40,245 nucleotides of DNA from the NCBI GenBank assembly GCA_947178015.1, contig CAMWWW010000001.1, positions 1 to 40,245 of the forward strand, written 5' to 3'. The DNA comes from an uncultured Clostridia bacterium (GTDB lineage: Bacteria > Bacillota > Clostridia > Lachnospirales > Lachnospiraceae). The translations under genes and the position numbers were made by a program. Below the pieces are notes generated by a model that did not search any database, had not been told where the DNA came from, and saw only the letters and a list, made by a program, of their open reading frames with translations. Positions 11,127 to 40,245 of this stretch are shown here, piece by piece. The first letter of the stretch is position 1; each line of letters opens with the position of its first letter.

Positions 11127-12626
11127 TCAAAGATACTTATCCATTCTCTCTGTTGTCTGATTTATGGTATCCAATGCCGTTTGCGCCTCCGATGCGTGTT
11201 CCAGATTTTCCTTAGAAATCATCGCAGCCTGATCCGCGCTCGCTGTGATCTCCTCCGTCATAGCGGATAGCTGTGATATACTTTCTACAATTCGATTATT
11301 GGAATCGGACAGATGGGAAATCCGTCCATCTATTTCCTTGATTTCCTGTAACAAGACCGCTATATTATTATCCAATTTCTGAAAATCCTCTGCGGCAGTG
11401 AGAATCATCTTATTCTGCCTTCCTGCTGCTTGAATGGAATTTTCTACTTTTTCCACCACTTCCTCTGCATTATGATTTAGCTCAATAACAATTTTCGAAA
11501 TGTTTTCTGTCGATTGTCTTGTCTGTTCCGAGAGCTGGCGAATCTGTTCCGCCACTACTGCAAAACCTCTCCCCGCCTCTCCTGCCCTTGCACTCTCGAT
11601 GGAAGCGTTGAGCGCCAGCAGATTTGTCTGGCTGGATATACTGAATATAATACTGGCTATTTCTTTTACTTCCTCTGTTTTTTGCTGTAGCTTTCCCATA
11701 GATTCTGTGACCTTTTCGTTGGTCTGGGAGATATTCTCCGCCTGTGTTTTTAATTCATCTATGGTTTGTATATTCGTCTTAATATTCTCATTGGACTCTC
11801 CTGCTATCTGCACCATACGCTCAGAGCGTCTTACCGTCTCCTCGATCGCCTCCTGTATGGAATGTGTCATATTATTCTGCTCAACGACATTTTCTGCCGT
11901 CGTGTTGGTTGCAGAGGTTATCTCCTGCATATTCTGATTGACGGTATCAGAAGATTGATACAGACTGTCAAGCAACGTCTTCGCTCTCTCTGCCTCCCCC
12001 TTCACTTCACGGGAAATATTAAGAACATCGGCAAGCATCTCCTTTTGACGCTCTCCCTGCTCCTCCTGTTTTCCCAGCGAATCATCACTAAATTGCTTTC
12101 CTACAGAGCTATTCTGATATAATATAATTAATACCATATAGATAATAATAATTTCTGCCATGGTATTCATGTTTAATTCAACAATTCCCTTACTATATTG
12201 GATACTAAAACAGATAAAATATAGCCCGCCATATAATGCTACAAGATTACGCTGAAATTTCCTGTCATAGAAAAGTGATGTTACCACCAATATTCCGATC
12301 AATGCAAATTTCTCAAATGTCGCATCGGATTGAACAGAAATTAAAAAATATTCCAAACCTATCTCAGCCACAAGAATATATCTAAAATGCTTCCATTTTT
12401 TATTTTTATAAAATAGCGCTGTGTCCAGTATGATAAATATAAAACATAGGACGATATTGCCATATGCGGTAGAAGATGATATGCTGTTTGTCATTAACCT
12501 GTTTATCAGATAGATAACCAGAACTCCCAAGCTCTCTAAGCTAATAATCCAAAGCATCTGGTTCACACGTATACAGCGCTCCGCCATGTCGTTAAAGCGA
12601 TATTTTTGTTGCGTTTTCTCTTTCAT
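11127..12626 (-). CDS. Methyl-accepting chemotaxis protein with a polytopic membrane N-terminal module
   Basis: The signalling domain carries [32 protein letters not shown]. The N-terminal roughly 190 aa are multi-TM. The ATG at 12626 is preceded by GGGGGA. The longer start at 12740 would run into the upstream terminator. Confidence 0.9.
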
Positions 12627-22906: not shown

Positions 22907-23422
22907 TCACTGTCTAGCATCAAATGCCGCTCTGCGAATAATATGCTCCTCCGTATTGGCGGCTTTGCTATCATAATTTGCCGTAATTGGCGCCTGCTTC
23001 ATACTATTCATCAAGGTAATGTCAAAATTTACCAAATCAAGCGCTTCCTTCAGCAATCCCTGATTCATATCATTAATTTTTACCATCTGCGCCATGGTAT
23101 TATGCAGCTTGTCATGAATTTCGCCCAATCTTTTTTTCACCGCCGGCTGGCTGTCCATCAGCTCCATCAGACGAGTAAGCGTCAGCGACTCCTCTGGACG
23201 ATTTATCACAGTTGCGATATCCTTCGTGTATTCCATCCTCTTTTTCTCCAAAGGAGTAATACGGTCGACCACAAGCTGTTCCTGCTCAACCAATTTCTGG
23301 AGGGCGTTGACATCATTACGGATAATGATCCCTGTCTTTTCCTGAGAAAGCTTTAAAAGTACCTGATACTCCTCATTCTCCTTCTCCAGTGTATTCATCA
23401 GTTCATCAATCAGTCCTGCCAT
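22907..23422 (-). CDS. flgN: FlgN family flagellar chaperone
   Basis: About 171 aa and helical, starting LIDELMNTLEKENEEYQVLLKLSQEK. It is adjacent to flgM and flgK. GGAGAGG precedes the ATG at 23422. Confidence 0.75.
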   Translation of the reverse strand: MAGLIDELMNTLEKENEEYQVLLKLSQEKTGIIIRNDVNALQKLVEQEQLVVDRITPLEKKRMEYTKDIATVINRPEESLTLTRLMELMDSQPAVKKRLGEIHDKLHNTMAQMVKINDMNQGLLKEALDLVNFDITLMNSMKQAPITANYDSKAANTEEHIIRRAAFDARQ

Positions 23423-23463
23423 TTTCACCTCTCCATTTCTAGCATATCATTTACCTATTTATT

Positions 23464-23597: not shown

Positions 23598-23770
23598 CTA
23601 TAAGTTTCTGTATCAACGATTTGTGTCATCATTTTCGAGGATGGTCCGCATAGACAGCGCTGCTATTTCCTCCATCACCCCGCTACGTTTTTCACTAAGC
23701 GAGAGCGGGGGGTGACGGAGGACTATAGGCGATTCTCTGTGCGTACCACTCTAGAAAATGAATATCGAGC
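23598..23770. repeat. Structured interspersed repeat, copy B (chimeric head-to-head fusion of two 5' halves)
   Basis: The left part resembles the copy-C flank, arm and catcaccccgc. The right part is nearly identical to 59-150 of copy A (tacgtttttcactaagcgagagcgggg..gaggactataggcgattctctg). The 3' half of the core is missing. Confidence 0.8.
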
Positions 23771-31950: not shown

Positions 31951-33936
31951 CTATTCTTCTACCTGAAACTGGTTTGATGTCTTCCTCAAATGTTCCACCA
32001 CCTGATTTAACTGTTCTACCGTCTCTTTCATCCTACTGACAGAATCCAAATTCGCACCCGTTGACTCTCTCACGACCATAACCGTAGATGTCACCTGCTC
32101 CACTCCCGCCATCTGTTCCTGCGAAATAGTGGCAAAGGTATGCGCGCTTTCCTCTACTTGCTGAATCTCTGTCAAAATCCCTTCCATCCTGTCATGAATA
32201 TTATCCACCGCCCCAGCTATAACAGCAAAGCTTTCCTTTGTATTATCCACAACCGCCACGCTCGCTTCTATCCTATTGACATTCTCTTTTGTCTGGGAAA
32301 CGGTTATGTTGACAATCTGCTCTACTTCCTTGATCAGTCTGACGATATCCTCTGCTGACTGTGCAGAATGGTCGGCAAGATTTTTTATCTCCCCCGCCAC
32401 CACAGCAAAGCCTCTGCCCGCTTCTCCTGCCCGCGCCGCCTCAATGGAAGCGTTGAGCGCCAGCAGATCCGTCTCAGACGCTATCTCCTGTATCACAGTA
32501 ATAATACTGCTGATCCGTGCGGCAAGCGCTTCTACCTTGCCCACCGTAATGGCAAGCTCCGTCATGGCATCCTTCACTCCCGTGATCTCCTGCGAAGCCG
32601 CCATAATGCTCTCCTGTCCCTTTACTGTGGCGTCCATGGTAGAATAAAGAGCGGTCCTTGAATCTTCCCCTTTCTCAAGAATGGCTCCTACCGCCTCGCT
32701 TACTTTCTCTGCCATCTGTGCAACGGTAGTGGCGGAGCCTGAGAGCTGATCCATATTCTCTGCGATCAGCTCAGAGGAATAATTAATGGAATTTGACTGT
32801 CCTTCCAGCACACCGACCGCTTTCTGACATTCCTCCGTCTCATCCTCCAAATCGGACACCGCTTTCTTAATATCTGTCACCACACCCTTTATGCTGGACA
32901 CACTCTCATTCACTGCCCTAACCATGCTGCCTATCTCAGTTCTGCTCTTAATAGAAAGGCTGCCCGTCAGATCACCCCGCGCAACTCCCTTCATATACTC
33001 ATCCACGCGCACAATTGGTTTTGTGATCCTACCAATCACAATGAATAAAACCACAAGAAGCATCACCATCGCCACACCAAAGCAAAGCGCCGACACCTGC
33101 GCAAGCTGATAACAATCCTCCAATATCACACTTTCTGGAATTATCACCAATAACTGCCAGCCAAGCTCCTCCACCTGCTGTGTTGTCACAAAACACGCTA
33201 CACCATCCAGCGTATATTTCTCAGACGAACCGCCTGCTGCCAGATCCTGCGCAAGCTGAGGATAAAAATCAGATAAAAATCTGCCCTGCTTATCTTTATC
33301 TGTCGTACCAATCACTTCTCCCTCAGAATTGACAAGAATTGCCTGTCCATTCTGCAACTCCATATCAGAAAGCACCTGATCAATATCCAAAAGAAATACA
33401 TCTGCCCCCAGCACACTAGAACCGTCCTCCAGCATACACGACAACGTGACGCACACCTTGCCCGTCACACTGTCCACATATGTGTTTGTATAATGAATTC
33501 CGGGGGACTGGGCTGCTATCTGATACCATTCTCTGGAAGCAAGTCCTGTAATCCCTGCTCTCTCTTCTTTTGAAATACCGGGATATATCAGAAAATCATC
33601 CTCATATCCTATATATATGCCATAGGGAATACTGCCAAAGTCCCCCTTCACACTTTCCAAATAAGTGCTTCTCGCTGCTTTCGAGGGACGCTCATTCGCA
33701 TAACTCACACACACTTTCACGCTGTACTCATTCAGCTCCATCCAGCTTTCCAAGCTTAATCTGCCCTCCGATGCCATACTATTCATCCATCTGGTGGCCG
33801 CCTGATAAAGAGAACGATATGCCATAAACAGGCTGATGCCCGATATAATTAACATCGCAATCCCTGTCAACAGCCCGGCTGTCAGAAGCAACTGATTTTG
33901 TATCTTCCCTGTATGTAGCCTGCCTTTTCTGCTCAT
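31951..33936 (-). CDS. Methyl-accepting chemotaxis protein with an extracellular Cache-type sensor and HAMP domain
   Basis: 661 aa with two TM helices flanking a sensor of about 260 aa (REWYQIA...TGKVCVTLS). The signalling motif is [40 protein letters not shown] precedes the ATG. Confidence 0.9.
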
Positions 33937-39754: not shown

Positions 39755-39811
39755 TGGGTGTCTAATCAAGGGGATCACAAGGACCTGTACTTTTTAAAAT
39801 TTATTCATAAT

Positions 39812-39996
39812 ATAAGTTGTATAGTCATTTTCGGAAAAGGTCCGCATAGCCAGCGCAGCTATTTCCTCCGTCACCCCGCTCTCGCTTAGTGAAAAACGTA
39901 ACGGATGCTAAGCTCGTGAACTACCTCGCTAAGCACCAACGTTTTTCAATAGGTTCCTTGAGGAAAATAGCTGCGCTGGCTATGCTGCTTTTGTTG
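39812..39996 (+). repeat. Structured interspersed repeat, copy C (complete)
   Basis: The 5' flank occupies 39812-39843, the left arm 39844-39868 and the 92-nt core 39869-39960. The right arm at 39960-39985 is the reverse complement of the left arm with one extra A. A T-rich tail (tgcttttgttgg) follows. Confidence 0.85.
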
Positions 39997-40090
39997 GTAT
40001 TCTAAACACGTTTGTTTTTACTTGGCACTACCGTCTCCCACCGCGTCATAGTCCATTACAGTATTCTAAACGCGTTTGTTTTTTTACTTG
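39997..40090 (+). repeat. Two imperfect 28/30-bp direct repeats separated by 36 bp
   Basis: The repeats are gtattctaaacacgtttgtttttacttg (39997-40024) and gtattctaaacgcgtttgtttttttacttg (40061-40090). The second contains the perfect palindrome aaacgcgttt. Confidence 0.7.
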
Positions 40091-40199
40091 TTCTTGTAAT
40101 CTTATCTATATTATTGGATATAGTTTTGTTCTTTGGTTTTCTGATTCGCATATTATTAGATTAACTCTATAGAAGAAGAAAAACCGACGTACCTAACAC

Positions 40200-40245
40200 A
40201 ACAGAAAAAAACAGCGCAGAGAATCGCCTATAGTCCTCAAGGCAC
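40200..40245 (-). repeat. Structured interspersed repeat, partial copy cut by the window end (3' arm plus U-tract when read on the minus strand)
   Basis: 40214-40238 (gcgcagagaatcgcctatagtcctc) is the exact complement of arm 93-117. It is followed by aaggcac, the first bases of the core as at 2-8, and preceded by A7 (T7 on the minus strand). Confidence 0.8.

Follow-up and report, generated by a model that had tools for sequence, protein, structure and literature searches.

An apparently undescribed family of non-coding hairpin repeats, arranged as tail-to-tail doublets, in some gut Lachnospiraceae

What is the long hairpin repeat at 39812-39996 of this 40,245-nt stretch of Lachnospiraceae DNA (the whole stretch is called the window below), and in which form might it act? 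The first-pass annotation had described two full copies of a repeat with a conserved core inside a covarying stem, and had read it as a candidate novel structured RNA or an element of operon 3' ends. As judged from sequence comparison, the feature is a member of a previously undescribed, non-coding family of hairpin repeats of about 150-190 nt, taxonomically narrow and present in some gut Lachnospiraceae.

The complete copy (copy C, 39812-39996) consisted of a 25-bp outer stem (P1) enclosing a 92-nt core, and all parts of the layout first proposed (flank, arms, core, extra A and T-rich tail) were recovered in place. The conserved 5' flank (39795-39843, plus strand; ..TAAGTTGTATAGTCATTTTCGGAAAAGGTCC) was an inverted match to 116-166, with an approximate outer boundary, and contained a -10-like box and a TTTC..GAAA dyad; a homologous 5' flank was found across all main-family copies. 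The 5' arm of P1 (39844-39868, plus strand; GCATAGCCAGCGCAGCTATTTCCTC), placed by the repeat search and by covariation columns 5-29/122-146, was of the type that begins GCATAGCC... (C-type). The core (39869-39960, plus strand), placed by folding, covariation and paralogue core identity, comprised in order an asymmetric internal loop (CGTCACCCCGCTCTC), an invariant helix (TGAAAAACGT/ACGTTTTTCA), covarying inner helices and an apical loop. The 3' arm of P1 (39960-39985, plus strand, starting at 39960 or 39961) was complementary to the 5' arm except for one extra A: 21 nt paired at 100% and the remainder paired across the bulge (repeat search). A T-rich tail followed the right arm.

The second module (A) lay on the minus strand, divided between the two ends of the window. 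The 3' arm of its P1 (40214-40238) and the last 8 nt of its core occupied 40214-40245 and continued at window position 1, followed by the core (1-92), the 5' arm (A-type, GCGCAGAGAA...; 93-117) and the conserved 5' flank with the outer end (..TATAAGTTTTTGTAAAGATAAGTTGTATAGTCATTTTCGGAAAGGGTCC; 118-183), the last being an inverted match to the C flank with an approximate outer boundary. The A arm was unrelated in sequence to the C arm and paired with 40214-40238 at 25 of 25 positions. The A core differed from the C core at 9 of 92 positions (1-97 against 39864-39960, 91% complementary), and the covariance model matched 1-119 with 115.8 bits. The repeat search agreed with the earlier counts for both the core and the arms. 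The core and arm patterns had an expected count by chance of 0.00 (shuffles), and the window repeat folded much more stably than shuffled sequence, with z of -6.1 on the plus and -8.0 on the minus strand for RNA, and of -6.2 and -7.9, respectively, for DNA.

The ends of the window overlapped by 8 nt (caaggcac at 40238-40245 and at 1-8; the source contig has 40,248 nt), which the first-pass annotation had overlooked. With the ends joined, copies C and A become adjacent, with C on the plus strand, a 228-nt spacer and A on the minus strand, tail-to-tail. What had been described as two copies behind two operons (one after hflC, the other after an LCP gene) is, as read from the overlap, one tail-to-tail doublet that spans the window ends and lies between convergent genes. 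The AT-rich spacer (39986-40213) had T-rich tails at both ends, and a search for a conserved ORF in it found none. It also carried a direct repeat of 28-30 nt (gtattctaaacacgtttgtttttacttg; 39997-40024 and 40061-40090), which included a motif that other genomes have in the tail behind their C-type modules and so may be the remnant of another module tail.

Joining of the ends gives a 40.2-kb circle. The genes of the window (exopolysaccharide genes, a late flagellar operon, recD2, comF and hflKC) were ordinary chromosomal content, and the gene after hflC differed in close relatives, so that the circle is probably an artefact of assembly induced by the repeat, and two identical A modules may have closed the loop. 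Such a possible loop leaves the anatomy of the doublet unaffected. Another repeat in the window, an 88-nt direct repeat with 82% identity (11542-11629 and 32387-32474), is separate from the element and corresponds to a paralogous signalling domain within two genes for methyl-accepting chemotaxis proteins.

A third copy, also overlooked by the first-pass annotation, was an internally deleted doublet at 23621-23765, delimited by the repeat search and by arm and core patterns. A C-type flank, arm and core start (23621-23684, plus strand) was joined to an A-type core start, arm and flank (23685-23765, minus strand) at a 6-nt direct repeat (CCCGCT); everything between the two CCCGCT was lost and the outer doublet ends were kept. 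A similar collapse, through ACGTTTTTCA, was found at locus L007, and decayed, truncated and deleted copies occurred in the family.

The proposal of a repeat family with a conserved core proved genuine beyond the window. The exact core 19-mer was found at 35 loci in five Lachnospiraceae or Clostridia MAGs (185,579 species genomes searched), and a degenerate pattern matched 11 metagenome contigs. A covariance model built on 32 copies and then run over the loci gave about 40 matches in the loci of MAG MGBC164205 and about 16 in a second MAG, many of them at contig ends, and diverged family members were found outside those two MAGs. Plasmids, phages and viral contigs gave no module match (BLAST; pattern scans for viral contigs). 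Six related metagenome copies are called group Y below, and four others (L046 and L051-L053) group X.

Adjacent modules were arranged plus-then-minus, tail-to-tail, in 17 of 17 pairs, and head-to-head in none; the sole same-strand neighbours were a truncated and a partial copy in L013. Doublets recurred at seven MGBC164205 loci, in the second MAG (L033) and in the distant loci L047 and L055 (spacers of 5-60 nt) and L016 (about 110 nt). The tail-to-tail rule was kept in distant lineages with spacers of 5-60 nt, and spacer length in the family ranged from 5 to about 420 nt (L004). No pair had the same arm on both modules: one bore a C-type arm (G[CT]ATAGCC...) and its partner an A-type arm (GC.CAGAGAA or GCCCGGCGAA). 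Single modules without a partner were conserved in distant lineages. At one locus (L002, 4074-5593), two tandem MvaI/BcnI-family restriction endonuclease paralogues lay between two modules.

All modules were intergenic. The genes around doublets and single modules were convergent, tandem or divergent, and the modules faced either way relative to their neighbours, so that the family is not an operon 3'-end element as had been proposed. A host transcription insulator, in which two back-to-back terminator hairpins would halt transcription from either side, would agree with the exclusively intergenic placement, with the position of the window doublet between convergent operons and with the T-rich tails that face the spacer in the main family. 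It is nevertheless very improbable: a terminator needs no 92-nt conserved core, some doublets lay between divergent genes, the terminator scan called 0, and the T-tract began 3 nt past the stem and paired with the A-rich flank (folding). The T-tract, which the first reading had noted at the end of both copies, was present after the stem in the main family and group X and missing in group Y, L018 and L056. A simple intrinsic terminator was rejected on the same scan, on distant members without a T-tract and on the mixed orientation and context.

Drift of the stem sequence with its pairing kept, first noticed between the two window copies, held on 32 or more copies with shuffle and slide controls. 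In 32 distinct copies, 25 of 48 predicted pairs changed on both sides, and the outer-stem columns had up to six pair types each. Cells in standard pairs amounted to 96.6%, versus 82.7% with shuffled partners (0 of 500 shuffles reached the observed value) and 33-42% when partners were slid by 1-3 columns. The inner helices also covaried (columns 60/101, 67/97, 68/96 and 73/91); the switches from C-G to U-A and from A-U to G-C reported for the core corresponded to columns 67/97 and 68/96 and recurred across the 32 copies. Distant members (group Y, group X, L018, L056, L016 and L027) had wholly different, nearly perfect arms of 30-33 bp around the same core, and apical hairpins of variable length that were compensatorily replaced. 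Copies from different samples with both flanks in common formed a series from A-T through A-C to G-C, as of a compensatory change under way, and indels in one arm were matched by indels in the opposite arm.

Among mismatch cells on the proposed strand, about 31 were A-C, about 16 G-U and about 20 of transversion type. The unpaired cells resemble new mutations that have passed no filter, and G-U is preferred on neither strand. Part of the covariation may come from template-switch correction acting on the palindrome as DNA, as is suggested by the long, nearly perfect stems, the compensated indels and the lack of bias among mismatches.

Within a single genome, five paralogous doublets had mean identities of 67-76% in the outer flanks, 75% in the spacers, 82-90% in the arms and 94-98% in the cores, and core similarity between genomes about equalled that within one genome. 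Cores this similar beside spacers this diverged, and equally alike between genomes, indicate old copies with the interior kept; the family appears not to be a recent burst of a decaying repeat.

A structured non-coding RNA could also produce strong covariation of outer and inner helices, and apical hairpins of variable length with compensatory replacement are seen in many RNAs. The modules would then be either small-RNA genes in many copies, each transcribed from a promoter of its own within the 5' flank, or UTR or intergenic elements with a long duplex that is processed (e.g., by RNase III) or that protects mRNA ends. Both window modules followed genes in sense orientation, and a doublet places the sense module first for every incoming transcript. 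A -10-like box (TATCAT/TATAGT/AACAAT) preceded the stem on one side only, at a constant distance of 13-15 nt, and no other sequence feature hints at transcription as strongly; together with the main-family T-tract the box is compatible with transcription units, and is counted against the reading favoured below. Promoter scans, however, gave no excess over shuffles, terminators were not called, T-tracts were not general, and orientation to neighbouring genes was mixed. The excess of A-C over G-U cells argues against an RNA read on the strand proposed by the first-pass annotation, as does the greater RNA stability of the opposite strand in 37 of 38 modules (one tie; mean 8.5 kcal/mol), a bias that comes largely from a G-rich loop common to the modules, which are not independent observations, and so is not independent evidence. 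Near-perfect stems of 25-33 bp with compensated indels also exceed the usual need of an RNA. A structured RNA is on these grounds a possible explanation, and on the whole an unlikely one.

A search of Rfam (Rfam 15), suggested in the first-pass annotation for a candidate RNA, matched no family (0 matches at the gathering score, and no genuine one with an E-value threshold), and the sub-threshold matches were by chance only (mir-71 and MIR2655). The animal mir-71 precursor matched the inner hairpin with 23-31 bits (gathering score 50) at 39883-39954 of the window (minus strand), at 910-981 of L016 and at 440-524 of L047; the likeness of UGAAAAACG to the miRNA is fortuitous, and automated annotation could be misled by it. 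A promoter-like site in the C-type arm (TTGAGG-N16-TATACT) was missing from A-type arms and was rejected. No small ORF was conserved, and a 32-aa frame across some MGBC copies and the spacer peptides were likewise not conserved.

The outer flanks of the doublets were inverted copies with a sharp start (TATAAC(A/T)TCTTGTA; CAGGACAAAC in group Y) and with repeated (G/C)TTGTA motifs near the doublet ends; a TA was possible on both sides, inseparable from the repeat itself. These ends would be expected of an ordinary MITE of a DDE transposon, in which the doublet would be the element, the outer flanks (TATAACATCTTGTA...) would be its TIRs, and the hairpins would be incidental or kept by template-switch repair of quasi-palindromes. 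Group Y doublets of only about 400 bp and the truncated and deleted copies point in the same direction, as does a 9-bp direct repeat (AAATAGTCA) that flanked the L019 doublet. The L047 doublet had a direct repeat of 5-10 bp at its flanks and the remaining doublets had none, so that no target-site duplication was consistent across 14 doublets. No autonomous insertion sequence with matching ends was found in the loci examined, and no clean empty site that would define the element ends was found. The conservation profile is also the reverse of that of a MITE: the interior core was the most conserved part and the termini were less conserved, partnerless single modules persisted in distant lineages, and conservation of the core across genera was far beyond neutral decay. 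An ordinary MITE is therefore considered improbable, and the earlier exclusion of plain transposase-bound TIRs was supported. Several features of mobile repeats were present, in that the family is dispersed, has inverted outer flanks and includes deletion derivatives as well as decayed remnants; a consistent target-site duplication and an autonomous partner were not found.

No transposase (Y1/HUH or other), RAYT or reverse transcriptase was present among the ORFs of the window or of about 50 loci (about 8 kb per copy), in which the recurrent neighbour genes were only large housekeeping families (e.g., ABC ATPases and two-component systems). Twelve arms tested as phage-derived spacers gave no match.

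Among known systems, the closest design appears to be that of the REP, REPIN and BIME repeats, a group of short proteobacterial palindromes that RAYT tyrosine transposases mobilise; the host of the present family is a member of the Firmicutes. The BIMEs of Escherichia coli are built from two REP types in alternation, each inverted relative to the next. The present family is likewise extragenic, with tens of copies per genome and a palindromic unit that forms inverted doublets around a spacer. REPINs are described as hairpin-forming inverted doublets with compensatory changes, of which single units are remnants (PMC3116915), and the family resembles them in its hairpin-preserving compensatory changes, remnant-like single units and long persistence in lineages (PMC3116915). 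It differs in size, as REP units have 20-40 nt and the modules 150-190 nt, about five times as large; in its conserved interior and variable stem, whereas in REP the stem is conserved; and in the lack of a conserved 5' tetranucleotide, whereas REP has a 5' GTAG-type signature. In REPIN systems a single-copy RAYT (Y1 transposase) gene is flanked by the units, and none was seen in the DNA around the present copies; the family is not filed as REPIN, RAYT having been sought only around copies. To our knowledge, REP/REPIN-type repeats are well studied in proteobacteria and hardly at all in gut Firmicutes.

ERIC/IRU, Correia (CREE/NEMIS), RUP and BOX-type repeats and MITEs are similar to the family as imperfect palindromes of about 100-200 nt that are dispersed between genes and co-transcribed with their neighbours. 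The processing of mRNA, RNase III cleavage included, is influenced by the hairpins of Correia and ERIC elements, and a duplicated TA accompanies Correia and RUP elements. Unlike the present family, ERIC, Correia, RUP and BOX-type elements and MITEs have conserved terminal inverted repeats, and neither a pair rule with two arm types nor an interior core conserved across genera; no sequence similarity to them was detected.

Integron attC sites share with the family a single-stranded hairpin in which structure is kept over stem sequence, and the extra arm base of copy C recalls them. They have, in contrast, a variable centre and lie in same-orientation arrays behind cassettes, whereas the family has a conserved centre and tail-to-tail pairs. 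attC was rejected because the modules had no R''/R' boxes and the extra base was found only in copy C and was not kept between copies. The ssoA origins of rolling-circle plasmids fold into long hairpins specific to one strand; their stems are poorly conserved and short motifs are kept, with RSB at the stem base and CS-6 in the terminal loop. Using the RSB and CS-6 motifs of PMC4598088, the flank sequence CCGAAAAT was faintly like RSB and a minus-strand TAGCGA was like CS-6. This candidate was rejected, the motif likeness being weak and the order and position wrong on either strand; there were no plasmid or phage matches, and the element is chromosomal, with tens of copies. A retron msr-msd was also rejected: a1/a2-like arms exist, but a reverse transcriptase was not in the window or the neighbours, and there were tens of copies per genome. 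Resemblances to 6S RNA, a CsrA sponge, parS and cre were judged by eye and dropped as weak.

The favoured explanation is a REPIN- or BIME-like palindromic unit with a folded single strand as its active form, which is the likeliest single account and is held tentatively, at a little under an even chance. The module consists of the conserved 5' flank, an outer stem of 25-33 bp that is free in sequence and almost perfectly paired, and the conserved core, in which an asymmetric, highly conserved unpaired loop and an invariant 10-bp helix are joined by further covarying helices; modules are normally paired tail-to-tail, with two arm types. As a consequence of tail-to-tail pairing, either DNA strand, or a transcript from either side, carries one module per orientation. 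The folded form may be an extruded or replicating DNA single strand or a read-through transcript. A trans-acting factor would recognise the invariant loop and helix, and the outer stem would only need to zip up and present the core. What the sequences show directly is the module anatomy, the spread of copies, the pair rule, the covariation and the core constraint; single-strand recognition, the trans-acting factor and mobility, past or present, are inferred.

Several results count against this explanation: no transposase was found near the copies, no target-site duplication was consistent, no clean empty site defined the ends, and REP units are short with conserved stems. The existence of old paralogues with diverged spacers yet intact cores also speaks against it. 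It suggests that each old copy is under selection, which would fit a host function better than a purely selfish replicator. In a host-maintained class of structured elements, the 20-40 copies per genome would each be kept by selection, a dedicated protein would bind the invariant loop and helix, and the copy-specific stem, perfectly paired over 25-33 bp, would carry information, for example as copy-specific small RNAs processed by RNase III or as the ssDNA site of an undescribed Firmicutes recombinase or nuclease. That class is regarded as decidedly improbable.

The design of the family is unusual in its interior conservation across genera, its drifting yet perfectly paired stem, its two arm types and its strict tail-to-tail pairs, and the apparent constraint on each old copy suggests a host function or an undescribed structure-specific enzyme. 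In practical terms, the family makes contigs of Lachnospiraceae MAGs break or close into false circles, and its module sites coincide with gene-order breaks within the clade.

The element was present or absent at orthologous sites among relatives. Downstream of hflC, a 93%-identical relative had a decayed module of a different arm type and an 84% relative had an ordinary terminator only. Upstream of flgN, a 94% relative had a truncated half-module in the same place and orientation with a different arm type, and relatives at 85-87% had no module. Relatives at 84-87% protein identity were too diverged for the comparison of empty sites at hflC and flgN to fix the element borders. Gene order was broken at both module sites (after hflC and before flgN) in some relatives (L036, 1990-2100; L057, 905-975; L043; L045), and the presence of different arm types at the same site indicates that modules coincide with rearrangement points. 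A sigma-D-type promoter-like block (..CTCTAATGTT..N..ACCGATAAAATAAATAG) was conserved just upstream of flgN across all relatives (window 23360-23440, L057, L060 and L062), and the deleted doublet at 23621-23765 lay directly upstream of it. In L027, a 38-nt inverted repeat outside the module arms (6056-6093/6338-6375, 89% complementary) included the last codons of the upstream gene, as if a palindrome had extended into the DNA beside it.
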